This document shows positions 5,747 through 54,865 of a DNA stretch of 64,000 bases, in pieces. Below the pieces are notes generated by a model. It had not been told where the DNA came from. It was given only the letters and a program-made list of their open reading frames with translations, and ran no database searches. The DNA comes from Candidatus Latescibacterota bacterium (GTDB lineage: Bacteria > Latescibacterota > UBA2968): assembly GCA_965116885.1 (NCBI GenBank), contig OZ220741.1, forward strand, positions 3,904,001 through 3,968,000, written 5' to 3'. The translations under genes and the position numbers were made by a program. The first letter of the stretch is position 1. Every line of letters begins with the position of its first letter.

Positions 5747-5842
5747 TCAGCCACTCTCAATAAACTCACCACCTATATCCGTAGCAATCTGCGTCCAGAT
5801 TTCGTCCTTGGAAGGTCCGAAAACAGATCTGAGCATACCCAT
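5747..5842 (-). pseudogene. 31-codon fragment MGMLRSVFGPSKDEIWTQIATDIGGEFIESG, possibly a truncated DUF3137-like N-terminus
   Basis: GGAG RBS plus ATG; FGPSKxEIW resembles N-termini of longer proteins (recalled, unverified). Confidence 0.4.
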
Positions 5843-6107
5843 TTTTTACTCCATGGTTTTGACGCTTGATAATCCTCATAAATCGCGTTCTACTTCAATT
5901 CTTCCTCTATCCAATCCATCCACTTCATAAGCCGCGAAAGGTATCTTGATACCCTCTCGTTTGAAGAGCGTGTCAGGTGGATATACAATTCTCGGGTCTC
6001 ATCGAGAAAGTCAGTCCACTGTGGATATGACGCCTTTAGCACCGGTATTGTGTCAATGCTTTTTTAGATTACAAATATATGCAAATCAAGTTTTCAATAG
6101 GGATGAG

Positions 6108-6136
6108 GGAACGCCCCACCAGAGATACAGGTCTAA
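6108..6136 (+). promoter_or_regulatory. ECF (sigmaE-like) promoter GGAAC-N18-GTCTAA
   Basis: 46 nt upstream of ATG 6183; same-spaced counterpart at 48665-48693 on the minus strand. Confidence 0.6.
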
Positions 6137-6182
6137 TGATTCAGAACCGAGGAGAGTAACCAATCCACCGAATAGATGAAAA

Positions 6183-7751
6183 ATGACCAGAGACTCACAT
6201 AAATCGCCTGTGTCTATTGATCGAAGGGATTTTATTCACCTGGCCGGTCTTGGCGCAATGGGCGCGCTTGTTCTGGGGCTGGATGTTCCTGTTGGCGCAC
6301 AAAAACAACCCAATTTTATCTTTATGGTTTCTGACGATCAGGGGTGGGATGGCCTTTCGGTGCAGATGCACGATGCGATTTTCGGTTCAAAGAGCGATTT
6401 TTACCAGACGCCCAATCTCGAGAAGCTCGCACAGCAGGGCATGCGTTTTTCGGCAGCTTATTCGCCTTCGCCTGTCTGTTCACCCACGCGATGTAGCCTT
6501 CAAACGGGTAAAAGTCCGGCACAGAACCACTGGACAAAGGCGTCCCCTATTCTGACCGCCAGAGATGGCCGTAAACTCATCCCACCAATGCATGGCAGAG
6601 ATCTCTCCAGTGGTGAGATAACCATTGCTGAGATGTTGAAACAGGCCGGTTATACCACAGCACATTATGGCAAATGGCATCTCGGTGGCGGTGGACCAGG
6701 ACGTCACGGGTATGACGTACACGATGGGAATACGGGTAACAGGGATGCGGCTCGTCATGTCGATCCCAATCCTGTAGATATATTCGGTATGTCCCGGCGT
6801 GCCAATGCGTTTATGGAGGAGAATACAGAAGCGGGCAAGCCGTTCTTTATCCAGTTGTCTTACTATGCTCTGCACTATCCCCGGAATGCGCTGGAGAGTA
6901 CGCGGCAGGCATACGAAAATCGACCGAGGGGGCGCGTCCATCGAAATGTCAATCGCGCGGCGATTACTGAAGACCTGGATACGGGGGTGGGTATGATCAT
7001 GGACCAAGTTGAGAAACTCGGTATTGGCGGTCACACGTATCTGATTTACATGTCGGATAATGGGGCTGTTGGAGGCGGTCTGGGTGTGTTGCGCGGGTCG
7101 AAGGGATCACTGTGGGAGGGAGGTATTCGCGTGCCGTTGATTATCCAGGGACCTGGTATAGAGCCAAATACGTTTTGTGATGAACGCGTGGTCGGTGTTG
7201 ATCTGTTTCCCACGCTTTGCGAACTGGGCGGTGTAAGTCAGCCGTTGCCATCGGGTATTGAGGGAGGGAGTATCGCGTCGTTATTATCTGGTGGGTCGGG
7301 TGCGGTTGTGAGACCTCGGGAGGAGCTTGTGTTTCATTTTCCGCATTATCAAAGTGAAGATGATGGACCGCATTCGGCAATTATATTGGGCGATTACAAG
7401 TTGCTCAAGTTTTACGAGACCGATGAGGTGCGGTTGTATGATTTAGCCAATGATATTGGTGAGCAGAATGATTTGTCCAAAGATATGGGAGAAGAGGCGA
7501 TGCGTCTGCGCGAACGTCTCGAACAGTATCTCGATTCCGTTGACGCTCAGATGCCAGTGCCCAATCCCAATTATGGGCCAAGCAAATCAAGTGATTTTAA
7601 TGGCGATGGACAAATCAATTTCCAAGATTTTCTGGAATTTGCCAGAGCTTATGGGTCGGAGGAGACTCGGTTTGATCTGGATAATAGCGGGCGTGTGGAT
7701 TTTGCCGATTTTTTGAGGTTTGTACAAGATTTTGGAAGCGCCGGGAATTAA
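6183..7751 (+). CDS. Tat-exported sulfatase with C-terminal dockerin-like double EF-hand tag
   Basis: DRRDFI twin-Arg signal; SDDQG, CSPTR, GKWHL, SDNG; C-terminal DFNGDGQINFQDF...DLDNSGRVDFADF. Confidence 0.92.
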   Translation: MTRDSHKSPVSIDRRDFIHLAGLGAMGALVLGLDVPVGAQKQPNFIFMVSDDQGWDGLSVQMHDAIFGSKSDFYQTPNLEKLAQQGMRFSAAYSPSPVCSPTRCSLQTGKSPAQNHWTKASPILTARDGRKLIPPMHGRDLSSGEITIAEMLKQAGYTTAHYGKWHLGGGGPGRHGYDVHDGNTGNRDAARHVDPNPVDIFGMSRRANAFMEENTEAGKPFFIQLSYYALHYPRNALESTRQAYENRPRGRVHRNVNRAAITEDLDTGVGMIMDQVEKLGIGGHTYLIYMSDNGAVGGGLGVLRGSKGSLWEGGIRVPLIIQGPGIEPNTFCDERVVGVDLFPTLCELGGVSQPLPSGIEGGSIASLLSGGSGAVVRPREELVFHFPHYQSEDDGPHSAIILGDYKLLKFYETDEVRLYDLANDIGEQNDLSKDMGEEAMRLRERLEQYLDSVDAQMPVPNPNYGPSKSSDFNGDGQINFQDFLEFARAYGSEETRFDLDNSGRVDFADFLRFVQDFGSAGN

Positions 7752-7783
7752 CAAATTCAATTGTTTATACAGGAGTTTATCCC

Positions 7784-9097
7784 ATGAAGATTGTCGGATT
7801 TGCGATTGTCGCATGTTTGTTAGGCGCTTTGGAAGCGAATGCGTGTAGTGCGGATTTGGATAAGGATGGCGAGGTAGGGTTTTCTGACTTTCTAGTTTTG
7901 GCTGCTCAATTCGGTCAAACGTGTCCACCTGAAATGCCGGATACTCTGAGCGCGATATCCGTAGAGGCTGGCTACGGTCGGATTGTGCTTCCGGGTACAC
8001 AGGTGGATCTCAATGCCACACTTACCAATGGTCCGGGTGCCCGTGTTGTGTGGCGGCAAGTGCAAGGGGCGTCGGCGGCGATCAGTTCGCCCAATGCGCT
8101 CCAGACGACGGTTAGCGTTCCTGTCAATGTCAGCGGTGCGGAGACCTTGCTATTTGAAGTGCGTGCCGAGATGGAATCGGGACAACAAGCATCGGATACG
8201 GTTTGGATCGAGGTGTACGTACCCGAACAGAATCCAGCCGACCTGACGCTTGTGGCAGATTTTTCGCCGAAAGTTGGTTGGGAGTGTAACCAGGACCCCG
8301 TAGAGGTTCCAGAGGTTCAGACCCGCGTTCTGGAAAATACCATCGAATATACGTCCAACGGCATTCCCGCCCATGCGACAGGGTTGTTTCCCAATCGGGG
8401 AAATCCGAACATGATTTGGTCAGTGCCGCAAACCTGGCGCATTCCCCGCTATCCCGAAAAGACGGACACGCCTACTGAAATGGCTGTATTTGGCATCACG
8501 CTCGAGGGCATCAAACTCGAACGCGATACTGCGGAGAGTTATCGCAACCAGCGGCAGTGGAATTACGAGGCGCTGACCCCGGGTATGGCGCGTCGATTGA
8601 GCGGCAATGCGCGGTTTGAATGGCTGGGTACAGATTGCAATAACGCACACGTTCAGCCGACGGGTATTTACCACTACCACGGCGTGCCGCATAGCTTGAT
8701 AAATGAACTCGCCGGTGGGATGGAGAGCGAGGAAATGGTATTGGTCGGATATGCTGCCGACGGTTTTCCGATCTATGTCGCCAGCGGGCCCAATGCTCCT
8801 GAGGGAAGTTGGGAATTGCGCTCGGGGACGCGAGAAAGTGGACCCGGGGGAGAATACGATGGCACGTTTCGGGAAGATTGGCAATTTGTCGAGGGATCGG
8901 GTGACCTCGACCAGTGCAATGGGCGATTTGGGATGACGCCCGAGTTCCCGGAAGGAATCTACCATTACTATCTTACCGAAGACTACCCGTACATGCCCCG
9001 CTGTGTATGGGGGACGCCAGATCCTTCGTTCAGGCAACGTCGGGCTGGTGGTCCTGGCGGCCCAGGTTTTAGAAGGCGTCCACCGAGCCGTTATTGA
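7784..9097 (+). CDS. Secreted YHYH protein with one dockerin-like repeat and a PKD/Ig-like domain
   Basis: Signal peptide; DLDKDGEVGFSDF; WRQVQG Ig-like segment; AHVQPTGIYHYHG, GYAADGFPIY, GDLDQCNG, YHYY. Confidence 0.88.
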   Translation: MKIVGFAIVACLLGALEANACSADLDKDGEVGFSDFLVLAAQFGQTCPPEMPDTLSAISVEAGYGRIVLPGTQVDLNATLTNGPGARVVWRQVQGASAAISSPNALQTTVSVPVNVSGAETLLFEVRAEMESGQQASDTVWIEVYVPEQNPADLTLVADFSPKVGWECNQDPVEVPEVQTRVLENTIEYTSNGIPAHATGLFPNRGNPNMIWSVPQTWRIPRYPEKTDTPTEMAVFGITLEGIKLERDTAESYRNQRQWNYEALTPGMARRLSGNARFEWLGTDCNNAHVQPTGIYHYHGVPHSLINELAGGMESEEMVLVGYAADGFPIYVASGPNAPEGSWELRSGTRESGPGGEYDGTFREDWQFVEGSGDLDQCNGRFGMTPEFPEGIYHYYLTEDYPYMPRCVWGTPDPSFRQRRAGGPGGPGFRRRPPSRY

Positions 9098-9145
9098 TCT
9101 GGTATTCATAGATTGAAAATATCCGTGCGGAGGACGACAGACATC

Positions 9146-10303
9146 ATGTTCTTAAAATTATTAAAACCAAAATGGGTGCTGGGTGTGATCTTCGCTTTAT
9201 TTTGTATTTTTAGCCCAATCACTTTGAAAGCGTCACTGACCGATTTTGATGGCAATGGCAAAGTCGATTTTGCCGATTTTCTACTTTTTGTAGCTGTATT
9301 TGGGCAATCGGCTGCTGGGCAAAATGCGATTTTCGATCTGGACACAAGTGGCAAAGTCGATTTTGGAGATTTTTTAATTTTTGCCAGTGCTTTTGGGCAA
9401 CCCGCCTCTGATCCTGTTCGCGGTGTTAGCACTCAGGGTTTTGCAACGCAAACAATTTCCAATCTGCTCGATTGTCCCGGGGGGCGTATAAGTCGTGTGG
9501 GGACCATTACATCTGACGATGGCAATGTGTGGATTATGCCCGCCGAGACGCTATACACAACCGCAAGACATGCATCGGATATGTATAACCAATGCACAGG
9601 TGTTTTCACTTCCAGTAGCAGTGCTCTCAATTTGTCGGCTGTGCCAGTTGTAGAGATCGATAGAGATGGTGAGACGATTACGGGATATATCTTTGCTGAC
9701 AATTACTTTGAGTTGTATGTGAACGGTATCTTGATCGCAGTTGATTCAGTTCCGTTCACACCGTTTAATTCGAGCATGGTTCGGTTTAAGGTTAAGCGAC
9801 CATTTACGATTGCAATGAAGTTGGTCGATTGGGAAGAGAATCTGGGGCTTGGCACAGAAGCTAATCGCAATTTTTTACACCATCCTGGAGATGGTGGTTT
9901 GGTAGCGAGTTTTCACGATGCCAATGGAAATACGGTTGCAATTACAAATGGTCAATGGAAAGCGCAGACTTTCTATATTGCACCCATTAGAGATTTGAGC
10001 TGTATTGTTGAGAAGGAGACCGAGCATTTGTCCGGCGACTGTGACACGCGGGGTACAAATGATGGGAGTCAATTTTACGCAATGCACTATCCCGTCCCAT
10101 CTAACTGGTCTGAAAGCGACTTTGATGATTCGGCCTGGCCACGGGCATATACTTATACAAATGCGACAGTTGGTGTGAACAACAAACCCGCATATACTAA
10201 TTTTACGGATCTATTTGATGATCCTGAGCACGATGCACAATTTATATGGTCATCGAATCTCATTTTGGACAATGAAGTGATTGTGCGATATACCGTAAAG
10301 TAG
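9146..10303 (+). CDS. Secreted hypothetical protein with N-terminal dockerin-like tag
   Basis: Signal peptide; DFDGNGKVDFADF...DLDTSGKVDFGDF; ADNYFELYVNG and FDDSAWP segments suggest a beta-sandwich. Confidence 0.8.
   Translation: MFLKLLKPKWVLGVIFALFCIFSPITLKASLTDFDGNGKVDFADFLLFVAVFGQSAAGQNAIFDLDTSGKVDFGDFLIFASAFGQPASDPVRGVSTQGFATQTISNLLDCPGGRISRVGTITSDDGNVWIMPAETLYTTARHASDMYNQCTGVFTSSSSALNLSAVPVVEIDRDGETITGYIFADNYFELYVNGILIAVDSVPFTPFNSSMVRFKVKRPFTIAMKLVDWEENLGLGTEANRNFLHHPGDGGLVASFHDANGNTVAITNGQWKAQTFYIAPIRDLSCIVEKETEHLSGDCDTRGTNDGSQFYAMHYPVPSNWSESDFDDSAWPRAYTYTNATVGVNNKPAYTNFTDLFDDPEHDAQFIWSSNLILDNEVIVRYTVK
9171..9282 (+). repeat. 112-bp signal-peptide plus tag module, repeated at 14568-14679
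   Basis: Ungapped manual alignment, 12 mismatches in 112 nt (~89% identity). Confidence 0.9.
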
Positions 10304-10338
10304 TGTTATGCTAAGTCGATATTTGATTGGGAATTGTG

Positions 10339-10938
10339 ATGGCAGAACGAAATCTCTATAAAGAAAATCAAGACGAAGACTTTGATTTTAAGATACTTGT
10401 GGATCAATACCAGGAGCGTGTATTGAATTTGTGCTATCGGTTTGTCAACCATCGGGAAGATGCTGAAGATGTGGCGCAGGATGTATTTGTGGAAATCTAT
10501 CGCTCAATTGGAAATTTTCGGAACGATGCGAAGTTAAGTACCTGGATTCACCGTATTGCCGTTAATAAGTCGCTGGATTTTGTGCGAAAGAAAAATCGCA
10601 AAAAGCGCTTTGGACAGGTCAAATATTTCCTTGGGCTTGAGGAAGTGGAGAATCAGTTGCGCGCTTCTCCAGACTCTCAACCCGAGGTTGTGCTGGAGAC
10701 AAAGGAATGTGCTGCGATTTTGAGACAGGCTGTGGCGTCTTTGTCAAAAAAACAACGGACTGCTATAATTTTAAATAAGTTTGAGGGATTCAGCTATGCA
10801 GAAGTAGCCGATGTTATGGAGACAACTGTTTCGGCTGTTGATTCCCTCATTCAACGAGGCCTGAAGAATTTGCGAAAGAAACTATACAGATATTATGAGG
10901 AAGATTTTAAAAATAAAAAAATGCGAAGGGATCTATAA
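10339..10938 (+). CDS. ECF-type RNA polymerase sigma-70 factor
   Basis: DAEDVAQDVF, STWIHRIAVNKSLD (region 2); EGFSYAEVADVM (region 4). Confidence 0.93.
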   Translation: MAERNLYKENQDEDFDFKILVDQYQERVLNLCYRFVNHREDAEDVAQDVFVEIYRSIGNFRNDAKLSTWIHRIAVNKSLDFVRKKNRKKRFGQVKYFLGLEEVENQLRASPDSQPEVVLETKECAAILRQAVASLSKKQRTAIILNKFEGFSYAEVADVMETTVSAVDSLIQRGLKNLRKKLYRYYEEDFKNKKMRRDL

Positions 10939-10952
10939 AAAATCACGTCTAA
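10924..10952 (+). promoter_or_regulatory. ECF-type promoter CGAAGG-N16-CGTCTAA
   Basis: Overlaps the end of the sigma gene; same spacing as the motif at 11889-11917. Confidence 0.6.
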
Positions 10953-10975
10953 CTATAGATGAGGAAAGAAAGTCT

Positions 10976-11287
10976 ATGAGCCGGGAACGAAAAATAGAAG
11001 AAGCAGTTGAGCAAACGCTTCAGAGCTTTGAGTCTGCCGACAGACTGCAACCCTCGCCCTTTTTTTATACAAGGCTTCGGGCAAGGATTGAGGGGCTGCA
11101 TCGAGGTGCGACTCAACGGTATCGATTCGCATTTGGTGTGTTGAGATTCGTTTCTCTCTCGCTACTACTTATTTGGAATATTGTGACGGTGACCTACCTT
11201 ATTGGAAGCGATCAAACAGAAGCCTATGATCGAAGTGAGATGATTAGTGTATTTGCTGAACTTTATGTGCTTGAGGGAGACGAATAA
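10976..11287 (+). CDS. Putative anti-sigma factor (single transmembrane helix)
   Basis: Directly follows the ECF gene; PSPFFYTRLRARI motif then a hydrophobic helix. Confidence 0.75.
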   Translation: MSRERKIEEAVEQTLQSFESADRLQPSPFFYTRLRARIEGLHRGATQRYRFAFGVLRFVSLSLLLIWNIVTVTYLIGSDQTEAYDRSEMISVFAELYVLEGDE

Positions 11288-11299
11288 AAGGGTGCTTAT

Positions 11300-11833
11300 A
11301 TGAGCAACTTCTGGCAAAAGGGATTTGGTGCGTGGGCTATCGCATTGCTTCTTATTTTTAATATCTCTACACTGTCTCTATTGTGGTACAAAGAAATCAA
11401 CAAACCAACGCGACCGGTGAGAGGCCCTGCTAATGCGTTAGATAATAGGGAGAGAATGCTGCGATTTATTGAACGCGAACTCGATTTGAGTAAGGAACAA
11501 GCTCGAGAATTTAGAAAGCTACACAGTGTATATCTTCAGCAGAGCAAGGTGTTACGGGATGAAATTCGGGATTTGAAGCGAAATCAATTGCAAGTAGAGA
11601 TGTTTACAAGCAAGGCAGATACGCTCAAGATAAATCAGGCGGCCAGACGGATTGCCGATAAACAATTTGAATTTGAGAAACAGACCTTCTTACATTTTCA
11701 AAAATTGAAAGCCTTGATTGGCGAAGATCAGGAAGAGAGTTTGAAAGCCTTATTAGATGAAGTATTTATGAAGCAGGGCAATAGTCGTCCCCCAAGTCGT
11801 GGGCGATCTCGTCCTCCCAATAACGGCTCATAA
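11300..11833 (+). CDS. Spy/CpxP/ZraP-like periplasmic (heavy-metal sensor-type) protein
   Basis: N-terminal TM ending LLIFNISTL, ELDLSKEQ and LIGEDQ LTxxQ-like motifs, helical. Confidence 0.75.
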   Translation: MSNFWQKGFGAWAIALLLIFNISTLSLLWYKEINKPTRPVRGPANALDNRERMLRFIERELDLSKEQAREFRKLHSVYLQQSKVLRDEIRDLKRNQLQVEMFTSKADTLKINQAARRIADKQFEFEKQTFLHFQKLKALIGEDQEESLKALLDEVFMKQGNSRPPSRGRSRPPNNGS

Positions 11834-11849
11834 AATACAGTCCTTTTTG

Positions 11850-11885
11850 CAAAAAACTTGGCACTTGCCGAGTTTTTTGTTTTTT
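11850..11885 (+). terminator. Intrinsic terminator (possibly bidirectional)
   Basis: CAAAAAACTTGGC-ACTT-GCCGAGTTTTTTG hairpin followed by a T-run. Confidence 0.75.
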
Positions 11886-11888
11886 GCC

Positions 11889-11917
11889 CGCAGGTTTTCT
11901 TCCTATCTGCCGTCTAA
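11889..11917 (+). promoter_or_regulatory. ECF-type promoter CGCAGG-N16-CGTCTAA
   Basis: Lies just after the terminator and 43 nt before ATG 11961; matches 10924-10952. Confidence 0.6.
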
Positions 11918-11960
11918 GCCTATAAGCCAGGGATAAATTGGAGACTACAGGAGGTGGCAA

Positions 11961-14555
11961 ATGATGAGGCAACAATTGAGGATGTTCGGATTGGTTTTTT
12001 GCATGATGAGTGTGTTGTGTACCAGTTATGCAGAAGGGCATATGCTCTACAGTGATGAAAGTGATGTGACAGATTTCAATGACGACGGAAAAACGGACTT
12101 CATTGATTTTGTCATGTTCGCGGCTGCATTTGGTTCGCAACAGATACAATTCGATTTAAATCAGAATGGTCTGGTGGATTTTCCCGACTTTCTTGTGTTT
12201 ATATCTGCATTTGGACAGCCCGGGTCTGGATCTTCTGGTGGCACGGATGGCGATGCCCCTGTGAGCGCACAAGCATTCCAGCATTTTGCGGATCGGCTAA
12301 ATATTCGGTGGGATGATGATTTTTTATATATCGAGTCCGACGCTTTTCCCGATCACCGCATGATGGTGGGGATTACAGCTTGGAATCAGCAGGTGCCTTT
12401 GCCGCAGCCTTATCAGGGCGATAATGCATGGCAGATTCCACTGAAACCCGCGGTTGCCGATGTGCCAGTTTATGCAAGCCAGACGCTGTTTCGGGGGGCT
12501 ATTGGTCTGGCTATTAACGGCGTGCCCATTTTTAATCCCATCAAACAGAATGGCCGCACCGACACGTATTTGGCTGGGGAGTTAGATGAATTTGGGGGGC
12601 ATGCCGGTCGTGCGGACGACTATCACTACCATATCGCGCCGTTGTTTCTTACAGAAAAAGTGGGCGATGCCGTACCTATTGCGTATGCCCTGGATGGGTA
12701 CCCGATGTATGGACTCAATGAACCCGATGGTACTCCGGCGAAAGATCTGGACGATTTGAACGGACATTTTGATGCAAATGGAAATTATCACTATCACAGC
12801 ACGCTGGATTATCCCTATGTCAATGGCGGATTTAAGGGTGTTATTGAACTTTTCAGAGGAGAAGAAGTCGCAAATCAACCCCGTACAAGGCCCGTTCGCC
12901 CTTCTGGGACGGGTATGAGGGCGAATATCACAGATTTTGTGAAAGGAACAGATGGCTGGTATCGGCTTACGTATGAGGCAAACGGTGGAATACACGCGAT
13001 TGCCTATTTTCTCAGACCAGATGGGGATTATGATTTTCAATTTATAGATGCCAGTGGCAATATCACGCGACAGACTTACCGCTCCAATGGGAGTGTTGAG
13101 GTAGAAGGCGATGCGGGAACGTCAGGCCAGAGCGGTGGGTCTGATGATTCAGGCCCCCAAACAGTAACCGATCCACCCGATACGGATTCCGATTCTTTGT
13201 TTGTTGCGTCCGAGTTGTTGGGACGACCAACCGATAGGTCCATAACTGTCAATGTGGTTCCATCAGCAGACCTGGAAATTTATCTGGAATACGGAACAGA
13301 ATCAGGTGTTTACACAAAGCAGACATCCGTGGTGGTGGGGACACGAAATACACCGATTGAAATTGCGATGGATGGGTTGCTTTCTAACACGCGGTATTAT
13401 TATCGAACGCGCTACCGGCGCGCAGGAGAAACAGAGTTCAAAAGGCGGGGCGAATATACGTTTCACACATATCGTTCACCGGGTACAACATTCACTTTTT
13501 CAATTCAGGCCTGCGCACATTTAGATGGTCGATCCAGTCTGGAACTCTATCATCGCTCGCTGGAAAATGTCGCAGCATATCAGTCCGATTTTCTCATTGA
13601 TCTCGGTGATACATTTATGTGCAACAAACACTCAGAACCACTTACGGCGACTGTAAGACCCGCACCCGATTACGCAACCGTTGAGCGTCGGTATTTGTAC
13701 GAGCGTGGAAATTTTGGAAAGATTACGCATTCTATTCCGCTGTTTCTCGTCAATGGCAACCACGATGGGGAAGAGGGGTGGTCCTTGAATGGTACGCCGA
13801 ACAATGTGGCTGTTTGGGCTACATTGGCGCGTAAAAAATATTATACGAATCCCGTACCAGATGTGTTCTACTCCGGAGGTTCCGATGAAGAGCCGTTTGT
13901 TGGCGTGAGAGAGAGTTATTATTCGTGGTCGTGGGGAGATGCGCTATTTGTTGTGATTGACCCTTATTGGTACACGACGACAAAGCCCAAACGCGGCGGC
14001 GTATCGGATAACTGGCGCTGGACCCTTGGCGAAAAGCAATATCAGTGGCTTCGACAAGTGCTGGAGGCGAGTGATGCGACCTTTAAATTTATCTTTTCAC
14101 ATCACCTGGTGGGGGGTATTCATACAGGAGAAGGACGCGGCGGTATTGAGATGGCTCCGTATTACGAATGGGGTGGTAAGAACAGAGACGACAGTTGGGG
14201 GTTTGACACAAAACGCGCGGGATGGGGCAAGCCTATTCATCAACTGATGGTGGAGAACAATGTGTCGGCTTTTTTTCACGGTCATGACCATGTGTTTGTG
14301 AAGCAGGAGTTAGATGGGGTGGTGTATCAAGTGTTGCCACAACCGAGTAACACCAATTATCGGAATGGTGACAAAATAGCTGCTGAAGGGGGATATTTTA
14401 GTGGTACTGTCCTGGGAAATTCTGGGCATTTGCGTGTAACTGTTTCTCCTGATGATGTTGTGGTAGAATACATCAGAGCTTATCTGCCAGGAGATGAAGG
14501 TGCTGGACGGGCAAATGGCGAGGTGAGCTATTCTTATCGGATAGAGAAAAAATGA
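11961..14555 (+). CDS. Secreted dockerin-like + YHYH + purple-acid-phosphatase-like metallophosphoesterase fusion
   Basis: Signal peptide; double DF tag; GHAGRADDYHYH, YALDGYP, NYHYH; FN3-like segment ending NTRYYYR; DLGDTF, GNHD, FSHH, GHDH. Confidence 0.88.
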   Translation: MMRQQLRMFGLVFCMMSVLCTSYAEGHMLYSDESDVTDFNDDGKTDFIDFVMFAAAFGSQQIQFDLNQNGLVDFPDFLVFISAFGQPGSGSSGGTDGDAPVSAQAFQHFADRLNIRWDDDFLYIESDAFPDHRMMVGITAWNQQVPLPQPYQGDNAWQIPLKPAVADVPVYASQTLFRGAIGLAINGVPIFNPIKQNGRTDTYLAGELDEFGGHAGRADDYHYHIAPLFLTEKVGDAVPIAYALDGYPMYGLNEPDGTPAKDLDDLNGHFDANGNYHYHSTLDYPYVNGGFKGVIELFRGEEVANQPRTRPVRPSGTGMRANITDFVKGTDGWYRLTYEANGGIHAIAYFLRPDGDYDFQFIDASGNITRQTYRSNGSVEVEGDAGTSGQSGGSDDSGPQTVTDPPDTDSDSLFVASELLGRPTDRSITVNVVPSADLEIYLEYGTESGVYTKQTSVVVGTRNTPIEIAMDGLLSNTRYYYRTRYRRAGETEFKRRGEYTFHTYRSPGTTFTFSIQACAHLDGRSSLELYHRSLENVAAYQSDFLIDLGDTFMCNKHSEPLTATVRPAPDYATVERRYLYERGNFGKITHSIPLFLVNGNHDGEEGWSLNGTPNNVAVWATLARKKYYTNPVPDVFYSGGSDEEPFVGVRESYYSWSWGDALFVVIDPYWYTTTKPKRGGVSDNWRWTLGEKQYQWLRQVLEASDATFKFIFSHHLVGGIHTGEGRGGIEMAPYYEWGGKNRDDSWGFDTKRAGWGKPIHQLMVENNVSAFFHGHDHVFVKQELDGVVYQVLPQPSNTNYRNGDKIAAEGGYFSGTVLGNSGHLRVTVSPDDVVVEYIRAYLPGDEGAGRANGEVSYSYRIEKK

Positions 14556-15913
14556 CCAGATACACACAATGGGCTTTGGGTGCGGTCTTCGCTTTATTTT
14601 GCATTTTTAGCCCAATTACTTTGAAAGCGTCACAGCCTGATTTTGATGGAAATGGCAAGGTCGATTTTGCCGATTTTCTCGCCTTTGCTGGTGCTTTTGG
14701 CACCGATCAAGTCAAATTTGATCTCAATCAAAATGGGCAGGTAGATTTTCCTGACTTTCTAATATTTGTTAGAGCATATGGTGCGAATGGTGACACATCC
14801 TTACCCGAGCCGTCTGCATTTTACAAGCTACCAGATGATTGGCAGGTTGTACCTATAGAACAACAAAATTGTGCAAAAGAGGATCTTGTTGGTGTTGATC
14901 ATGTTTATGTTGAAACGGCATCAAAATTGTTGGTGTGGCTTACCGGCACGGTTGAAGATGCACATTATGAACCCATTGGTGAGGTGGCAAATTATTTTGG
15001 TTTTGCAGCACTCAGGAACGAGATTCGGGAACGCGATGGGAACAATGCAGATACCTCTTTTCGAGGTGCAGTCTATAAGGAAGTCCTGGAGCTTTTGGAT
15101 GATACTCAACGGTCGTTGTTATATGAATTATTGGCCGAACATCGAACGGCAATCAACGGATTTTTGGAAGACCGTGTTTTGTTGGTCGATGAATTGTGGC
15201 GTTTAAAAAATAACGTTACAATGGACTATGTTCGTGTGATGAACTTGATACAATCAATTGGGGAATACGAAGGTACCATTACGGTCATAACGGCCCAATA
15301 CTATGCAAAATTACTACCTCTTTTGAGCGCTGAACAGGTGCAATACTTAGAAAATATTCGTCGTGGCGTTGTCACCGTAGATCAGATGCAAAATACCTCA
15401 TTGCCATATGCTGCAGAAGCAAAAACTCAATTTAACGCACTTAGCCGTGATGATGCTACATTGATGCAGGAAGTGTCGAGCAAGTTCGTTGCCTGGGCAA
15501 CGGGTGATTTATATGACGCGCTCTTTTTGCCAAGAGGTAAAATTGGCAACTATTTTGGGTTTTCAAGCTTTCGGTATGTGGATCGAACATCAGTGAGTCG
15601 TGGGGGGGCTGCGGATTTGATCGACCAGGTATTAACCCCAGATCAACAAGCCATTCTTTGTGGTCTCTCGACTAATGTTGTGGGTTATACCCAGGATTAT
15701 GTTAATGGCCGAGCGACTTTGATCACGAAATTGGATGCTCTCAAAAAAGATCCTACGCTGCCAGTAGATCATCTTGTAACGGACTATGCTGACCTGGCTG
15801 GCCAGGGTGAGGGCCGCAGGGTAGTGGTAGAAGCATTAACATATCATCTCATAGAGTCTATGATGAGTGCAGAACAAATCCAAAGTCTTAAAGCACTTAG
15901 AGTCACAAATTAA
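14552..15913 (+). CDS. Secreted dockerin-like protein with internally duplicated helical domain (LTxxQ-like motifs)
   Basis: Signal plus tag; SKLLVWLTG...NYFGF repeated as SKFVAWATG...NYFGF; LDDTQ, LSAEQ, LTPDQ, MSAEQ. Confidence 0.8.
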   Translation: MTRYTQWALGAVFALFCIFSPITLKASQPDFDGNGKVDFADFLAFAGAFGTDQVKFDLNQNGQVDFPDFLIFVRAYGANGDTSLPEPSAFYKLPDDWQVVPIEQQNCAKEDLVGVDHVYVETASKLLVWLTGTVEDAHYEPIGEVANYFGFAALRNEIRERDGNNADTSFRGAVYKEVLELLDDTQRSLLYELLAEHRTAINGFLEDRVLLVDELWRLKNNVTMDYVRVMNLIQSIGEYEGTITVITAQYYAKLLPLLSAEQVQYLENIRRGVVTVDQMQNTSLPYAAEAKTQFNALSRDDATLMQEVSSKFVAWATGDLYDALFLPRGKIGNYFGFSSFRYVDRTSVSRGGAADLIDQVLTPDQQAILCGLSTNVVGYTQDYVNGRATLITKLDALKKDPTLPVDHLVTDYADLAGQGEGRRVVVEALTYHLIESMMSAEQIQSLKALRVTN

Positions 15914-15952
15914 ACGATTCAGCTCAAATTTTTCTTTTATAGATTGGCAAAA

Positions 15953-16325
15953 GAACAACAAATCCGCATATACGAATTTTACAGATCTATTTGGTGCTCC
16001 AGAACGCGATGCACTCGTTTTTCATTTTCCACATTACGATATGGATCTCGCAGGGCCTGCATCGGCAATCATGTTGGGTGATTACAAGCTGATCAAGTTT
16101 TATGAGACCAATAAATTGCATCTGTTTGATCTGAGTAAGGATATAGGTGAGGAGAATGATCTGGCAGGTCGTAAACCCGAGGTTGTTGCGAAATTACATG
16201 GCCGACTGAATGAATATTTAGCATCCGTTGATGCCCAAATGCCCCGGCCCAATCCAAATTACGATCCGAGTAGTCCGGTCGGTGGGCGAAGGGAGAGAAA
16301 TAATCGGAGGCGAAGAACGCAGTAA
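15953..16325 (+). pseudogene. Chimeric relic: 62-bp copy of 10177-10238 fused in frame to a sulfatase C-terminus
   Basis: 54/62 nt identity to the 9146-10303 gene, then LVFHFPHY...DAQMPRPNPNY paralogous to the 6183 sulfatase; no credible start. Confidence 0.8.
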
Positions 16326-17240: not shown

Positions 17241-18698
17241 CTTACAGCCCGTAAGACCCACTCGCAGAGAGCTTTAGCGTTGGGAAGCAGACGCGAGTTA
17301 GCGAGCGTTATTTTGCAAGGGCTTCCGAATTTATGGTGCGGTGCTTTAGCATGGTGGCACATTGCTCAAGGCAATGTGGGCGGTGGAGCGGTGTACAAGT
17401 GCGCCAGCACTTCATCAACCAAAATCATCCGTTCACTGACTACATAAAAATTGCATAAATTACTGTTTTTATGTATATTTATACTATGGAATACTTAACA
17501 TACAAATACAAAATGTATAGTCTCTGTGACCGCAATAAGTATCTGCACTATGAGATAGACGCTTTTGCTGAGGTGTATAATCATTTCATTGCCTTGCACA
17601 AGCGATACTATCGGCGTTTTGGCAAATATCCGAGTAAGTTCACAATGATTAACCATTTGGCAAAGCTGAAAAGAACAACACGCTTTGCACATTGGCGTTT
17701 GTTGCCGAGCCAGGCATTGCAAAATGTGGTTGAGCGTATAGACCTTGGCTATCAGAAATTCTTTGCCAGAGACAACAAGCGTCCGCCCACATTCAGGTCT
17801 CGCTTTCGGTATCAGTCCTATACGCTGAAGCAAGCAGGATACAAATTCCTCGAGCGTAACAAGGTGCGTATTGGCAAGCGTATATTCAGATACCATAAGA
17901 GCAGAAAGTTCGATGTAGAGCGTATCAAGACGGTCACAATCAAACGTGACCGTGTAGGCGATTTGTGGCTATGTGTTGTTGCAAAGGCTGAGGGTATCAA
18001 GTCATTCATGATCAAGAACGGTAAAACCGCAGGTTTTGATTTTGGCTTGCAAACATATCTAACAGCCTCAGACAGCACAAGGACACAATCGCCATTGTTC
18101 TTTAATCGTAATTCAAGGAAAGTCAAAAAGGCTAATCGCAATCTTTCTCGTAAAAAGAAAGGTAGCAACAATCGTCACAGGGCAAGCGTAAATCATGCCA
18201 GAGTGCATAGGCGCGTTGCTAATCAGCGCAGAGACTATCACTGGCGACTTGCCCATCAACTGTGTAAAGACTATGACGTTATGTTCTTTGAGACTTTGAA
18301 CATTGACGCCATGAAAGCGTTGTGGGGCAGAAAGATTAGCGATTTGGGCTTTTCAAACTTCTTGTCCATCCTCAAGTATGTGGCAAAAAAGACTGGCAAA
18401 GTTGTCAAACAAATCGACAAATGGCTACCCACGTCAAAGACCTGCTCTGCTTGTGGCACAGTCAAAGAGGACCTCGAATTGCGAGAAAGAACATTCCATT
18501 GTTGCGAATGTGGTCTTGAGATAGACAGAGACCTCAACGCGGCGATAAACATTCACAGGTGGGGGCGTCCACCTATGGCGGAGGTAGCGTAAGACTTGCC
18601 GAACTTCGGGGAAGCAAGCAACTACTGTTGATCCCACAATCCCTGCTGAAGCAACAAGGTTTTAGAATCCCAATGCTTTAGATTTGAGAGTACGTCAA
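17241..18698 (+). mobile_element. IS200/IS605-family element, tnpB-only (IS1341-like), 1458 bp
   Basis: Left-end hairpin AAGA-CCCA...GCTTTAGCGTTGGG; right end GAAT-CCCAATGCTTTAG...GAGTACGTCAA; TTAT directly 5'; no target duplication. Confidence 0.85.
17486..18592 (+). CDS. tnpB: RNA-guided endonuclease TnpB
   Basis: RuvC I GFDFG, RuvC II FFETL, Zn finger CSAC/CCEC, RuvC III DRDLNAAINI; alternative start 17471. Confidence 0.95.
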   Translation: MEYLTYKYKMYSLCDRNKYLHYEIDAFAEVYNHFIALHKRYYRRFGKYPSKFTMINHLAKLKRTTRFAHWRLLPSQALQNVVERIDLGYQKFFARDNKRPPTFRSRFRYQSYTLKQAGYKFLERNKVRIGKRIFRYHKSRKFDVERIKTVTIKRDRVGDLWLCVVAKAEGIKSFMIKNGKTAGFDFGLQTYLTASDSTRTQSPLFFNRNSRKVKKANRNLSRKKKGSNNRHRASVNHARVHRRVANQRRDYHWRLAHQLCKDYDVMFFETLNIDAMKALWGRKISDLGFSNFLSILKYVAKKTGKVVKQIDKWLPTSKTCSACGTVKEDLELRERTFHCCECGLEIDRDLNAAINIHRWGRPPMAEVA

Positions 18699-53707: not shown

Positions 53708-54865
53708 ATGATTCGCCAGACAGGTCAATACCGCATTACCAGCACTCTCGGAGAGAAGGTTCGCGCGTTTGTTCCTTATCCGCTACCTCCTGCCGATCCA
53801 CCGCTGGTGATAGATGACCTGACAGCCGAACTCCTTACAAACGCGCAGACAGAATTGGCACGTCTTGCAGTGGCGGGTTCTATGGTGCCGAGCACTGGTT
53901 GGTTCCTGTATGGCTTCGTTTGGAAGGAAGCGGTCATTACCTCGCAGATAGAAGGGACGCAAGCCACTCTCCGCGATGTTCTCACTTTCGAAGCCACGGA
54001 TCAGACAGATCGTCTGGACGATGTTCGAGAGGTCTGCAACTATGTGGATGCCCTCGTACACGCCCGAGGACAACTTTCAGACCCTCAGGGGCTGCCGCTG
54101 AGTATCCGTCTGCTATGCGATACCCATCGCATTCTGATGCGCGGCGTTCGTGGCGAGAACAAACAGCCCGGTGAAGTCCGCCGATCGCAAAACTGGATTG
54201 GCGGTAGCAGACCTGGCAACGCTCGCTTCGTTCCGCCACCGCCCGAGGAGGTTTCCACCGCGCTTGGAGCACTGGAGCAGTGGTTGCATGAAGATAGTGA
54301 ACTCCCCCCGCTGATTCGGATTGGGTTTGCACATGTGCAGTTCGAGACAATCCATCCATTCCTTGATGGCAATGGCCGCATCGGACGGTTGCTGATTGCA
54401 CTGCTGGTGGAACACTGGGATCTGCTCGAACAGCCGCTACTCTATCTCAGCCTGGCGTTCAAGCGTGCGCAGCAGGAATACTACGCGCGGCTTGCGGCCG
54501 TGCGTAGCAACGGTGATTGGGAAGGCTGGACCAGGTTTTTCCTTGGGTGCGTGCGCGAGGCCGCTGCCGACGGTGTTCGTGTCGCGCAGTCGCTCCATGC
54601 CCTTGTTGGGCGTGACCGCAGTCGCATCATCGCCCACGACCGATCGACTGTTGCCGCTATTCAGTTGCTCGAGCGCCTGCCGTTCAATCCAATCGTCACC
54701 GTTCCCAAAGCGTCGGGACTGCTCGGCTTGACCGCACCACCGACGCGCAAGGCAATTGAACTGCTGGAAAGCCTCGGTGTGCTACGCGAGATCACTGGCA
54801 AGCGGCGTGATCGTGTGTACGCCTATCACGAATACCTACAAATTCTGACGGGTGGCGAGGCGTGA
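53708..54865 (+). CDS. Fic family protein (class II) with C-terminal HTH
   Basis: HPFLDGNGRIGR; N-terminal inhibitory TSQIEG; C-terminal EITGKRRDRVY. Confidence 0.93.
   Translation: MIRQTGQYRITSTLGEKVRAFVPYPLPPADPPLVIDDLTAELLTNAQTELARLAVAGSMVPSTGWFLYGFVWKEAVITSQIEGTQATLRDVLTFEATDQTDRLDDVREVCNYVDALVHARGQLSDPQGLPLSIRLLCDTHRILMRGVRGENKQPGEVRRSQNWIGGSRPGNARFVPPPPEEVSTALGALEQWLHEDSELPPLIRIGFAHVQFETIHPFLDGNGRIGRLLIALLVEHWDLLEQPLLYLSLAFKRAQQEYYARLAAVRSNGDWEGWTRFFLGCVREAAADGVRVAQSLHALVGRDRSRIIAHDRSTVAAIQLLERLPFNPIVTVPKASGLLGLTAPPTRKAIELLESLGVLREITGKRRDRVYAYHEYLQILTGGEA

Follow-up and report, generated by a model that had tools for sequence, protein, structure and literature searches.

The gene cluster described here, part of a 64,000-nucleotide window (genome range 3904001–3968000) from an uncultured Latescibacterota bacterium, is a strain-variable cluster in which two independent layers overlap. 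In the reading that we consider probable, the first layer is general dockerin display and the second is a metal-responsive cassette driving a YHYH-phosphatase gene and the 453-aa gene that follows it. The dockerin layer can be read directly from the DNA, whereas the cassette layer is in part read and in part deduced. On this account the dockerin plug would be the organism's general means of hanging some 70 different proteins on its surface; of the five tagged genes in the cluster, just two seem to respond to the sigma cassette beside them.

A cluster of five tagged secreted proteins

As the sequence-only reading had proposed, five intact plus-strand genes between 6183 and 15913 in the window's ORF list code for secreted proteins bearing a D-x-D-G loop–helix tag; four have two copies of it and one has a single copy, at either terminus. 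The first (6183..7751, +) encodes a secreted sulfatase (Pfam Sulfatase, 141.6 bits) with a twin-arginine leader, identified by eye, and a C-terminal double dockerin (aa ~466–520) that scores 64 bits with our own dockerin HMM and 20.9 bits with Pfam Dockerin_1, under the cut-off of 22.9. Its paralogues at 82–89% identity have no tag; among the best 120 homologues listed, 7 carry EF-hand or dockerin Pfam marks and none a T9SS tail. The second (7784..9097, +) joins a YHYH domain (187.1 bits) and a PKD-like Ig domain (K319L-like_PKD, 27.9 bits) to a single N-terminal dockerin repeat (aa 22–47), which matches half of our HMM at 29 bits; this protein keeps all three histidines that are invariant across ten YHYH domains.

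The third gene (9113..10303, +) encodes a 396-aa secreted protein with a signal peptide, a double dockerin (aa 43–98; 75 bits) and a beta-sandwich core. Its AlphaFold2 model (pLDDT 81.3) was closest by VIA-align to 6kbj_A (Z 8.3), 3w5n_A (8.3) and 2okx_B (8.0), followed by two more rhamnosidases, 6gsz_A (6.5) and 6i60_B (6.3), and then by a score of 4.5, pointing to a lectin/CBM67-like fold. Its family has 2,439 homologues, with a T9SS sorting domain in 39 of the best 120 listed. The fourth gene (11961..14555, +) specifies an 864-aa fusion of a signal peptide, a double dockerin (aa 37–88; 62 bits), a YHYH domain (51.9 bits) and a metallophosphoesterase (Metallophos, 28 bits); with matches to PhoD (26.5 bits, cut-off 27) and Pur_ac_phosph_N (17.5 bits, cut-off 30) lying below threshold, the enzyme part reads as PhoD/purple-acid-phosphatase-like. 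Overlapping the stop of this YHYH-phosphatase gene by 4 nt, the fifth gene (14552..15913, +) encodes a 453-aa secreted protein with a signal peptide, a double dockerin (aa 28–80; 72 bits) and an all-helical, internally duplicated core (AlphaFold2 pLDDT 92.7), for which a Pfam search returned no match. Its earlier description as Spy-like was borne out, as Spy/LTXXQ-like, by hhalign against the family of the putative sensor described below (95.3% probability, E 2e-8, 93 columns). The protein is probably displayed on the surface, and 8 of its 26 homologues have a T9SS sorting domain.

Inside the window range these five ORFs are the only dockerin-HMM matches; as had been noted, the ten other intact sulfatases are untagged (none among the matches; 28 window ORFs scanned). 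An ECF sigma gene, a small ORF and a PF13801 gene do separate the third tagged gene from the fourth, and the AT-rich stretch is real, with GC of 0.41–0.49 across 9–19 kb versus mostly 0.50–0.57 in the flanks (396-aa gene 0.44, cassette 0.42, 453-aa gene 0.43, genome 0.511). Across the genus, one slot in the cluster is either empty or occupied by the cassette or by a sulfatase; only 6 of 20 relatives have the 453-aa gene at full length, a seventh having it in split form; and the YHYH-Ig gene is duplicated in G017 and in G015, the latter also being rearranged. Behind the cluster lie the C-terminal remnant of a third sulfatase (15867..16325, +; Pfam SGSH_C, 26.7 bits), preceded by a short stretch that by eye resembles the C-terminal end of the 396-aa product, together with a TnpB gene of IS605 type (17471–18592). 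An intact counterpart of the remnant follows the cluster in G013, G011, G014 and G004.

Dockerin identity and putative cohesin partners

By profile comparison, the tag is a type-I-like dockerin with two calcium-binding loop–helix repeats. In the PDB, a profile of 65 genomic copies matched the cellulosomal dockerin 2y3n_B best (E 4.6e-14), aligning full length (positions 3–63 of 65), with the dockerins 4wi0_B, 4u3s_B and 5k39_B next, which confirms the identification first suggested. As a marker of the island, however, the tag fails: the same dockerin is borne by 71 ORFs of highly diverse secreted proteins according to our HMM (33 N-terminal, 31 C-terminal and 7 internal tags), and Pfam Dockerin_1 gave 54 matches at E ≤ 0.01 among 109 candidates scored. 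A domain survey of 65 tagged proteins recovered 12 LRR and 3 WD40 proteins, 8 polysaccharide-active proteins (GH10, GH113, PL8, two chondroitinase B and three DUF4955/pectate-lyase-like) and others including S8, M10 and M8 peptidases, two GSDH, SNase, redoxin and HmuY, with 16 carrying no family besides the tag. We agree that the docking system is non-cellulolytic, its cargo being mostly LRR/WD40 proteins, sulfated-glycan lyases, a sulfatase and metal-related proteins.

The earlier remark that no cohesin is visible is true of the window and incomplete, as the genome encodes three cohesins elsewhere. Two exceed the Pfam cut-off and lie in ORFs of 1,232 and 1,692 aa with TIGR04183 T9SS tails (35.3 and 38 bits; cut-off 23); the third, with E 1.9e-18 against these two, is in a 281-aa protein laid out as signal peptide, cohesin and T9SS tail. 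Each stands directly before the sorting domain, one per protein, and no protein with more than one cohesin was found in the genome. Full-length relatives of the 281-aa protein occur across genus, family and order; 61 of 61 related genomes have a match, the distant ones perhaps to the sorting tail alone, and most genomes of the class that keeps the cohesin-tail protein give at least 25–28 dockerin matches each, the number of candidates scored being limited to 27 per genome. A SprA homologue scores above its cut-off (634 bits), PorV-like and PorU-like matches fall under their NCBIfam cut-offs, and Por_Secre_tail matches number only 10, against 71 dockerin ORFs. Dockerin-tagged proteins would accordingly hang singly on outer-membrane cohesins through a predicted dockerin–cohesin pairing, and the five island proteins would share in this general display instead of building a separate complex. 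The sequence-only reading had coupled an indiscriminate tag with a genome lacking cohesins as the sign of a generic module; the tag is indeed indiscriminate on secreted proteins, but the cohesins exist.

The sigma cassette and its predicted targets

Comparison by blastn with cassette-free genomes delimited a facultative regulatory cassette of 1.63 kb (10308..11936, +) that comprises sigma, anti-sigma, sensor, terminator and promoter; its edges are precise, both flanks abutting directly in G014 and G004. The ECF sigma factor (10327..10938, +; Sigma70_r2 70.7, Sigma70_r4_2 58 and TIGR02937 104 bits) likely starts at ATG 10339, and its nearest relatives beyond the phylum are in Ignavibacteriaceae (55–56% identity) and Bacteroidota (40–49%). 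A small putative anti-sigma factor (10895..11287, +), assigned by position and size as the trio's second gene in related loci, has no Pfam or NCBIfam match and shows one hydrophobic helix near its C-terminus, taken by eye from the translation as transmembrane. The third gene (11300..11833, +) encodes a membrane-anchored periplasmic protein of the CnrX/ZraP/Spy family (Metal_resist, LTXXQ; PF13801, 39.2 bits, cut-off 29.2), the putative sensor. In its family alignment (n = 15) the two L..xQ motifs are retained and a single histidine is invariant; searching the PDB by sequence gave no match. The trio is not a fixed part of the island: judged by the anti-sigma gene, 4 of 21 genus genomes have the cassette, each time directly upstream of the YHYH-phosphatase gene, versus 12 of 21 for that gene itself. 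Since 8 of these 12 lack the cassette, ECF control is dispensable.

Directly 3′ of the sensor gene is an intrinsic-terminator-like hairpin (11849..11880, +; 14-bp stem, then a T run), followed by an ECF-type promoter motif, CAGGTTT-N13-CGTCTAA (11891..11917, +), 44 nt upstream of the YHYH-phosphatase start codon. This is the only match in the window with fewer than three mismatches and the only perfect one in the 5.56-Mb genome, where two further sites with one mismatch have no ORF downstream. The window scan found no copy before the sulfatase, YHYH-Ig or 396-aa gene, nor before the ECF gene, upstream of which the cassette has only ~20 nt. Three close kin of the window (L154–L156) have a perfect copy in the corresponding position, with differing spacers, and in L167 and L188 copies immediately precede the YHYH genes. 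Across 36 related loci it matched 35 times on the plus strand and 6 times on the minus strand (shuffles: mean 5.66, maximum 12); the motif itself had been drawn up by eye on the very Bacteroidota loci that entered this count. The proposal of ECF control over the island has a promoter motif behind it for the last two tagged genes and none for the first three.

A metal-type link between ECF factors and YHYH proteins, suggested earlier, is supported by cross-phylum synteny together with the promoter motif. Downstream of the related sigma in 32 loci beyond the phylum, we found T9SS-tailed YHYH (8 loci), MbnP plus a MauG-like di-haem peroxidase (6 loci), a multicopper oxidase (one locus) and additional Metal_resist genes; the YHYH proteins of the Bacteroidota neighbours all have a T9SS tail (8/8). 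The adjoining of YHYH-T9SS, MbnP/MbnH and multicopper oxidase genes to sigma relatives in Bacteroidota and Ignavibacteria points to a response to metal, probably copper. MbnP is a copper-binding protein matured by MbnH (PMC11951088); because it is absent from this genome, the argument for copper draws on other phyla. In the proposed mechanism a periplasmic signal, for which a transition metal (copper, for instance) is the likeliest candidate, would act via the sensor and free the sigma factor, which would then transcribe the YHYH-phosphatase gene and the overlapping LTXXQ/Spy-like 453-aa gene.

These data bear on three competing accounts. A single dedicated complex of the five tagged proteins on a cohesin scaffold, co-expressed under the ECF factor in response to envelope or metal stress, would suit their density (5 of 71 tagged ORFs within 10 kb, equalled in 16 of 20,000 random placements), their single strand with gaps of 16–128 nt, the rarer 27-residue linker between loops in three of the four double tags, and the mutual nearness of the three N-terminal tags, which are among each other's nearest relatives (53–56% identity). 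However, the dedicated 'assembled stress complex' is unsupported because no protein has several cohesins to assemble it; short-linker tags recur elsewhere in the genome, on one protein each of the HmuY, redoxin, S8-peptidase and Ig-repeat kinds, the cluster's gene content varies in the genus, the terminator parts the trio from the genes downstream, and the promoter motif is present only once, making this account highly improbable. Scarcely more credible is a tag that is a mere calcium-binding EF-hand pair, stabilising its carrier or binding a calcium-rich matrix, with the cohesin-like domains serving otherwise. Single tags match calmodulin EF-hand loops first in the PDB (from E 4e-7), the island double tags taken singly reach only 16.6–20.9 bits with Dockerin_1 and score higher with Pfam EF-hand_1, and 71 tags face 3 cohesins. 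Yet the family profile runs end to end on solved dockerins, whereas calmodulin matches are partial; the loops have no helix ahead of them, the tag beginning right after the signal peptide; 35 of the 54 genomic Pfam matches exceed the Dockerin_1 cut-off (6 of these only with in-frame neighbours added); and the cohesin-tail protein is kept across the class alongside the many dockerins.

Co-location by chance in a recombination hot spot, with the cassette controlling genes elsewhere or only itself and a non-functional site before the YHYH-phosphatase gene, is somewhat easier to entertain but still unlikely. The region is a mosaic (variable slot, YHYH-Ig duplication, G015 rearrangement, sulfatase remnant, TnpB gene) of low GC, and the promoter is a predicted one. 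Against this, all four genus genomes with the cassette, and contig L156, have it immediately before the YHYH-phosphatase gene, despite the rearrangement in G015; YHYH genes are rare (two in this genome, both inside the island, and none in 14 control genomes) yet follow related sigmas in the other phyla; and this genome has no second perfect copy of the motif.

Relation to known systems

The display layer resembles cohesin–dockerin systems, the closest solved example being the Pseudobacteroides cellulosolvens Cel48 dockerin with its cohesin (PDB 2y3n), in its duplicated calcium-loop-plus-helix module of ~60 residues at a protein terminus, in the presence of cohesins in the genome and in one tag common to many different secreted proteins. 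PMC7081726, citing Farag et al. 2017, reports cellulosome-affiliated enzymes in Latescibacteria. Unlike cellulosomes, this Latescibacterota genome has no multi-cohesin scaffoldin, the cargo is not cellulases and about half of the tags are N-terminal, with the linker of the island tags 6–7 residues shorter than in most others. Gram-positive systems anchor by SLH domains or sortase, whereas the cohesins here are anchored by T9SS sorting domains in a two-membrane cell.

The cassette shares with CnrYXH, a nickel/cobalt-sensing ECF system of Cupriavidus metallidurans (PMC6851896), an ECF sigma, a small single-pass anti-sigma and a membrane-anchored periplasmic four-helix PF13801 sensor. It differs in gene order (sigma, anti-sigma, sensor rather than Y-X-H), in a sensor where the CnrX metal ligands are not recognisably kept (His42/His46/Glu63/His119 were not seen in any alignment made) and in putative targets, secreted proteins of the YHYH and LTXXQ-like kinds instead of an efflux pump. 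Likewise resembling Spy/CpxP/ZraP/CnrX proteins, the 453-aa protein aligns by its first repeat with the sensor family over 93 columns including both L..xQ motifs, with weak structural echoes of CnrXs (2y39_A, Z 4.3) and ZraP (3lay_A, Z 4.1); unlike those proteins, it has an internally duplicated core of ~370 residues, a dockerin tag and, in its family, two further strongly conserved motifs, YEPIGE.ANYFGFA and LP.GKI.NYFGF.

For the ECF/Spy-like/MbnP/MbnH/YHYH-T9SS operon of Bacteroidota, our literature searches found no describing paper. The cassette shares with it a related sigma group (40–56% identity), the same trio layout, the same promoter motif and a YHYH gene as target. In the version of this genome, by contrast, YHYH is fused to a PhoD/purple-acid-phosphatase-like enzyme, MbnP is absent, an N-terminal dockerin stands in place of the T9SS tail, and the module is reduced to a portable 1.63-kb cassette carried by a minority of the genus.

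A dockerin family spread over secreted proteins of many kinds

Eight genes run in one direction (+ strand) from 6183 to 15913 with small overlaps or gaps of 16-128 nt. Pfam identifies a sulfatase (6183-7751), a YHYH protein with a PKD-like Ig domain (7784-9097), an ECF sigma factor (10327-10938), a PF13801 Metal_resist protein (11300-11833) and an 864-aa protein joining YHYH to a PhoD/purple-acid-phosphatase-like domain (11961-14555), and assigns no family to a 396-aa protein (9113-10303) and a 453-aa protein (14552-15913). The small ORF behind the sigma gene (10895-11287) is a putative anti-sigma factor, read as such from its size, its position and a hydrophobic helix seen by eye. A ninth + strand ORF (15867-16325) retains just the C-terminal part of another sulfatase, which is intact in four genomes of the genus (G013, G011, G014 and G004). 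It looks chimeric, with about 20 residues like the C-terminus of the 396-aa protein (..YTNFTDLF..) followed by the C-terminal 100 residues of a sulfatase, and looks like what a deletion would leave behind at a recombination hot spot. The genome that contains the window is a single 5.56 Mb contig.

The sequence-only reading had described a loop-helix tag on five secreted proteins of this locus, doubled in four and single in the fifth, and its absence from the neighbouring sulfatases. The description is exact: on direct inspection four of the five proteins show two tandem repeats of ~22 residues and the remaining one a single repeat, and none of the ten further intact sulfatases in the window is among the matches of the tag HMM. 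In several of these ten untagged sulfatases (22905-59524) the Sulfatase domain starts 5-14 residues from the predicted start; the signal peptide may be absent or the start codons mis-set. A Fic/DOC family gene also lies among the sulfatase genes (53708-54862).

In Dockerin type I (PF00404), each repeat begins with its 12-residue calcium loop, D-x-[DN]-x-[DN]-G-x-[IV]-x-x-x-D, and a helix comes only after this loop. Across an alignment of 65 tag copies, D32 and D43 are invariant and D5, F6, D16, F17, L18 and G37 are conserved in at least 90%. Searched against the PDB, the profile of these copies matched the cellulosomal dockerin 2y3n_B best (E 4.6e-14, end to end), with more dockerins next and only partial matches to calmodulin; with a single island tag, calmodulin loops rank first. 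At a curated Dockerin_1 cut-off of 22.9 bits, the whole-protein Pfam scan left island tags below threshold (20.9, 16.6 and 17.0 bits) and gave no Dockerin_1 row for the YHYH-phosphatase; the six-frame genome search gave 24.6 bits for the sulfatase tag and, with neighbours added, 26.6 bits for the YHYH-phosphatase tag. Because island tags fall below the Pfam cut-off and a single tag matches calmodulin first, the dockerin assignment, borne out by the 65-copy profile, is one for the family and not for the individual copy.

The same six-frame search returned 54 Dockerin_1 matches at E <= 0.01, 35 of them marked over the cut-off, and our own HMM, built from 44 double tags, placed the tag on 71 ORFs (33 N-terminal, 31 C-terminal and 7 internal). 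Domain scans of 65 carriers revealed 12 LRR and 3 WD40 proteins; polysaccharide-active enzymes (GH10, GH113, PL8, two chondroitinase B and three DUF4955/pectate-lyase-like proteins); S8, M10 and M8 peptidases; two GSDH proteins, an SNase nuclease, a redoxin, HmuY, DUF1501 and an esterase; many Ig/fn3/cadherin proteins; and 16 proteins with no family beyond the tag, a diversity indicating that the tag is found on secreted proteins of all kinds. LRR and WD40 proteins are typical of animal-associated bacteria. For Latescibacteria, the literature reports enzymes affiliated with cellulosomes (PMC7081726, citing Farag et al. 2017). Within the locus, the signal peptide and first dockerin repeat of the 396-aa (9113-9260) and 453-aa (14552-14700) proteins are nearly alike (..FALFCIFSPITLKAS..DFDGNGKVDFADFL..), with 66% identity over residues 6-79 (tblastn), which suggests that a leader-plus-tag module was copied between these neighbouring genes.

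Cohesins, sorting tails and a tentative route to the surface

Pfam Cohesin (PF00963; cut-off 24.1 bits) scores over its cut-off in two adjacent giant ORFs of 1232 aa (48 bits) and 1692 aa (32.7 bits), both of which end in a dockerin-like module, a cohesin and a T9SS type A sorting domain (TIGR04183, 35.3 and 38 bits versus a cut-off of 23). The two form a tandem (G000:C1:1016715-1025565; loci L045, L046 and L098) whose last 340 residues are 62% identical, and directly downstream follows another T9SS-tailed ORF, of 722 aa. With plug and socket in one polypeptide, the giant proteins could link up in series or close on themselves. A third cohesin resides in a 281-aa protein made up of a signal peptide, the cohesin and a T9SS tail like that of the giant ORFs; its 23.4 bits fall below the Pfam cut-off, but it matches the other two cohesins at E 1.9e-18, and relatives occur in 61 of the 61 genomes of the class searched, at full length across genus, family and order; in more distant genomes the match may cover the sorting tail alone. 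A predicted complex of this cohesin with the sulfatase dockerin, made from alignment input, scored 0.17 and 0.12 against a mark of 0.32, which is uninformative either way.

An HMM built from the genome's own cohesins found one domain in each of these three proteins and none elsewhere in the genome. No protein thus carries more than one cohesin, as a scaffoldin would, and nothing found by this search could bring the island's five proteins together in a single particle. The sequence-only reading had named a tag borne indiscriminately, in a genome lacking cohesins, as the outcome that would reduce the tag to a generic module; the indiscriminate tag is what we find, but cohesins do exist. Its features are real and most were named correctly, but the idea by which it united them fails: we read the dockerin as the mark of a general surface-display system, and the ECF genes as a separate option. 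If true, such display would give a concrete, testable design by which a two-membrane bacterium presents ~70 unrelated secreted proteins on only three surface anchors, and how such cargo crosses the outer membrane would become a question.

The cohesin proteins can be classed as T9SS type A cargo (TIGR04183 / PF18962), given their sorting domains and a translocon gene in the same genome, a SprA homologue (TIGR04189, 634 bits versus a cut-off of 200). PorV-like (155 versus 250) and PorU-like (261+78 versus 420) matches stay below their cut-offs. The best PorV-like gene of the genome, the one at 155 bits, adjoins a dockerin-tagged GSDH gene (G000:C1:6831-8168) and a 1001-aa T9SS-tailed ORF (region 5787-11138).

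Homologues of the island's passengers carry other anchors. The core of the 396-aa protein (predicted structure, pLDDT 81.3) matched a Pleurotus lectin and the sugar-binding beta-sandwich of GH78 rhamnosidases in a VIA structural search (Z 8.3, 8.3 and 8.0), followed by two further rhamnosidases (6.5 and 6.3) and an unrelated match at 4.5; Foldseek, less clear than VIA, returned weak rows only (E >= 3.6e-3). The protein is probably carbohydrate-binding. Its core has 2439 homologues at 55-60% identity in Bacteroidota, Ignavibacteria and Kapaibacteria, and among the best 120 of these 39 bear a T9SS tail, one has an N-terminal dockerin, two (P0030 and P0031) have a dockerin-like double repeat at the C-terminus ahead of a PEP-CTERM-like end (VPEP, hydrophobic stretch, RRR), and others are lipoprotein-like. 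The layout of P0030 and P0031 is a third way to combine tag and anchor.

T9SS tails also occur on 8 of the 26 homologues of the 453-aa core and on 8 of 8 YHYH neighbours in Bacteroidota. The sequence-only reading had left to be checked whether homologues in other phyla lack the tag, and the answer is divided: for the 396-aa, 453-aa and YHYH proteins some or all of the homologues examined bear a T9SS tail, whereas the best 120 sulfatase homologues include none with a T9SS tail and seven with EF-hand/dockerin marks. Sulfatase paralogues 82-89% identical are untagged. What is specific to this locus, as far as these comparisons of sequence go, is a dockerin in place of a T9SS tail on the same passenger families. 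If true, such swapping of dockerin, T9SS tail and lipid anchor on the same passenger families would aid the annotation of secreted proteins in uncultured phyla.

One way to connect these observations, which we regard as unlikely, is that in this lineage the dockerin took over the role of the T9SS sorting tail, with the cohesin-tail proteins serving as T9SS carriers in trans. The 281-aa cohesin-tail protein and the two giant dockerin-cohesin-tail proteins would bind dockerin cargo in the periplasm, including the sulfatase exported already folded via the Tat pathway, bring it through the SprA translocon and then retain it at the cell surface. In its favour, the genome has 10 sorting-tail matches against its 71 dockerin ORFs, no GspD-type secretin was found in it (TIGR02517), and in Bacteroidota the same passenger families bear T9SS tails where here they have a dockerin. 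Against it, we know of no precedent for T9SS carriers acting in trans, and the dockerin cargo may leave by other routes.

An optional ECF cassette and its likely targets

As the sequence-only reading had it, the tagged genes surround an ECF sigma factor, an anti-sigma factor and a Spy/CpxP-like gene; the sigma domains and PF13801 score over their cut-offs. Synteny across twelve loci from eleven genomes of the genus reveals a conserved core order of YHYH-Ig gene, 396-aa gene, a slot and YHYH-phosphatase gene, often with the 453-aa gene next. This slot is occupied in this genome, G013 and G003 by the sigma, anti-sigma and sensor trio, in G009, G017 and G005 by a second sulfatase, and in G011, G008, G014 and G004 by nothing; in G015 the trio and the phosphatase gene have been moved together by a rearrangement. 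The anti-sigma gene is present in 4 of 21 genomes of the genus and the YHYH-phosphatase in 12 of 21. The cassette spans ~10308 to 11936 at a GC of 0.42, and its flanks are joined directly in G014 and G004. By its distribution, then, the ECF cassette is a separate, optional plug-in.

GC drops to 0.41-0.49 over 9-19 kb; the sequence-only reading had noticed an AT-richer stretch at 9-16 kb. An origin of the low-GC stretch as one recently acquired island is rejected, because only the 1.63 kb cassette acts as an insertion/deletion, and many genomes of the genus share the synteny of the 396-aa, YHYH-phosphatase and 453-aa genes. At the border of the stretch lies an IS605-type TnpB gene (OrfB_IS605 with a Cas12f1-like TNB domain, 17471-18592), found in the same place in G017.

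Only ~20 nt of the cassette precede the sigma ATG, leaving no room there for a promoter of its own, and a strong terminator-like hairpin lies 3' of the sensor gene (11849-11880). Right behind the hairpin and 44 nt ahead of the phosphatase ATG stands CAGGTTT-N13-CGTCTAA (11891-11917), the sole perfect match in the genome; two one-mismatch sites both lack a downstream ORF, and the window holds no other match with fewer than three mismatches. Both boxes are perfect in three other Latescibacterota loci, where 3-4 spacer bases differ. Across 36 loci with related sigma factors, the same loci in which the motif was first recognised by eye, it has (<= 2 mismatches) 35 occurrences on the strand of the sigma gene and 6 on the opposite one (shuffles: mean 5.66, maximum 12). 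Some sites precede the sigma gene, some lie between it and the anti-sigma gene, and in loci L167 and L188 they stand immediately ahead of the YHYH genes. A second element, CCAGGT.TT.CAACAATATTTTATGCT.AC (CAGGT..TTATGCT by k-mer enrichment), is seen ~185-230 nt upstream of the sigma gene in eight Chitinophagaceae-type loci (L166, L168, L169, L177, L181, L185, L186 and L187).

The motif is absent ahead of the sulfatase, YHYH-Ig and 396-aa genes. The start of the 453-aa gene overlaps the phosphatase stop by 4 nt and, with the motif before the phosphatase gene, leads us to take both genes as targets. ECF control of the whole island, as had been proposed, is thereby narrowed: the most likely targets of the cassette are just the YHYH-phosphatase gene and the LTXXQ-like 453-aa gene. 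Short pieces (150-440 nt, 92-100% alike) of four island genes, those for the sulfatase, the YHYH-Ig protein, the 396-aa protein and the YHYH-phosphatase, are present in four metatranscriptome assemblies (two studies; two assemblies carry the label sponge metagenome). Being contigs from RNA libraries, they do not prove transcription, and the uncovered stretches (10492-11643 and 14716-15867) are uninformative. One such contig leaves the island at 10313 and continues like the cassette-less junction of G008, indicating cassette-free strains in that sample.

The core of the 453-aa protein is predicted to be all-helical and internally duplicated (pLDDT 92.7). Searches yielded nothing at E <= 0.001 with Foldseek against the PDB and no Pfam match at E <= 0.01; a likeness to photosystem helices was rejected, its best VIA Z of 6.4 being within the noise range for helical models. 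The family profile aligns with the Metal_resist/LTXXQ family of the sensor over 93 columns, both L..xQ motifs among them (hhalign 95.3%, E 2e-8), placing the protein in the LTXXQ/Spy/CpxP superfamily, so that the label 'Spy-like' given to it from sequence holds.

YHYH proteins, metals and the likeness to the Cnr system

At a cut-off of 25 bits, the two YHYH (PF14240) domains score 187.1 and 51.9, and H120, H128 and H130 are invariant in 10 aligned domains. YHYH genes are rare, with two in this genome, both in the island, and none in 14 control genomes, and a PDB sequence search with the domain gave no meaningful match. The family is described as functionally uncharacterised, with a three-histidine site predicted in one member (bioRxiv 10.64898/2026.10.18.759936). 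About 30 kb from the YHYH genes lies a gene for a multicopper oxidase fused to a C-terminal redoxin domain (46639-48603, - strand), a further copper-related secreted protein of this neighbourhood.

Outside the phylum, relatives of the sigma factor occur in Ignavibacteriaceae (55-56% identity) and Bacteroidota (40-49%). Among 32 such loci examined with Pfam and tblastn, the trio layout recurs, with a Pfam-detectable Metal_resist/LTXXQ gene after the sigma gene in 17 and an unmatched ORF of ~150-200 aa there in most others. Downstream lie YHYH proteins with a T9SS tail (eight loci), MbnP with a MauG-like di-haem peroxidase (six), a multicopper oxidase (one) and a T9SS-tailed sulfatase (one). MbnP is described as copper-binding, with a kynurenine ligand made by MbnH (PMC11951088), and MbnPH-like genes as present in copper operons (PMC9426467). 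MbnP (PF20243) has no match in this 98.4% complete genome, and the CnrX metal ligands are not recognisable in the sensor; copper is therefore an inference from other phyla. Our literature searches on YHYH, Latescibacteria dockerins and MbnP with a sigma factor found no paper describing this arrangement, nor one on a Bacteroidota ECF-MbnPH-YHYH operon.

Also specific to this locus, on present comparisons, are the YHYH-phosphatase fusion and the compactness of a cassette uniting sigma factor, sensor, terminator and candidate promoter. If true, the defined motif and the 1.63 kb cassette are directly testable, and would make the function of YHYH, possibly copper-related, more approachable.

A known counterpart of the trio is the CnrH/CnrY/CnrX system (PMC6851896). 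The ligands that are not recognisable in the sensor family are His42, His46, Glu63, His119 and Met123 of CnrX, to which a sequence-level alignment was not obtained; in the family's own alignment one histidine is invariant, another is common and one aspartate is kept in at least 90%, and a PDB sequence search with the sensor gave no meaningful match. Shared with the Cnr system is the architecture: next to an ECF sigma factor stand a putative anti-sigma factor, small and single-pass, and a periplasmic PF13801 sensor anchored in the membrane. If true, the cassette would widen the link between a CnrX-type ECF switch and YHYH proteins from Bacteroidota to a second phylum.
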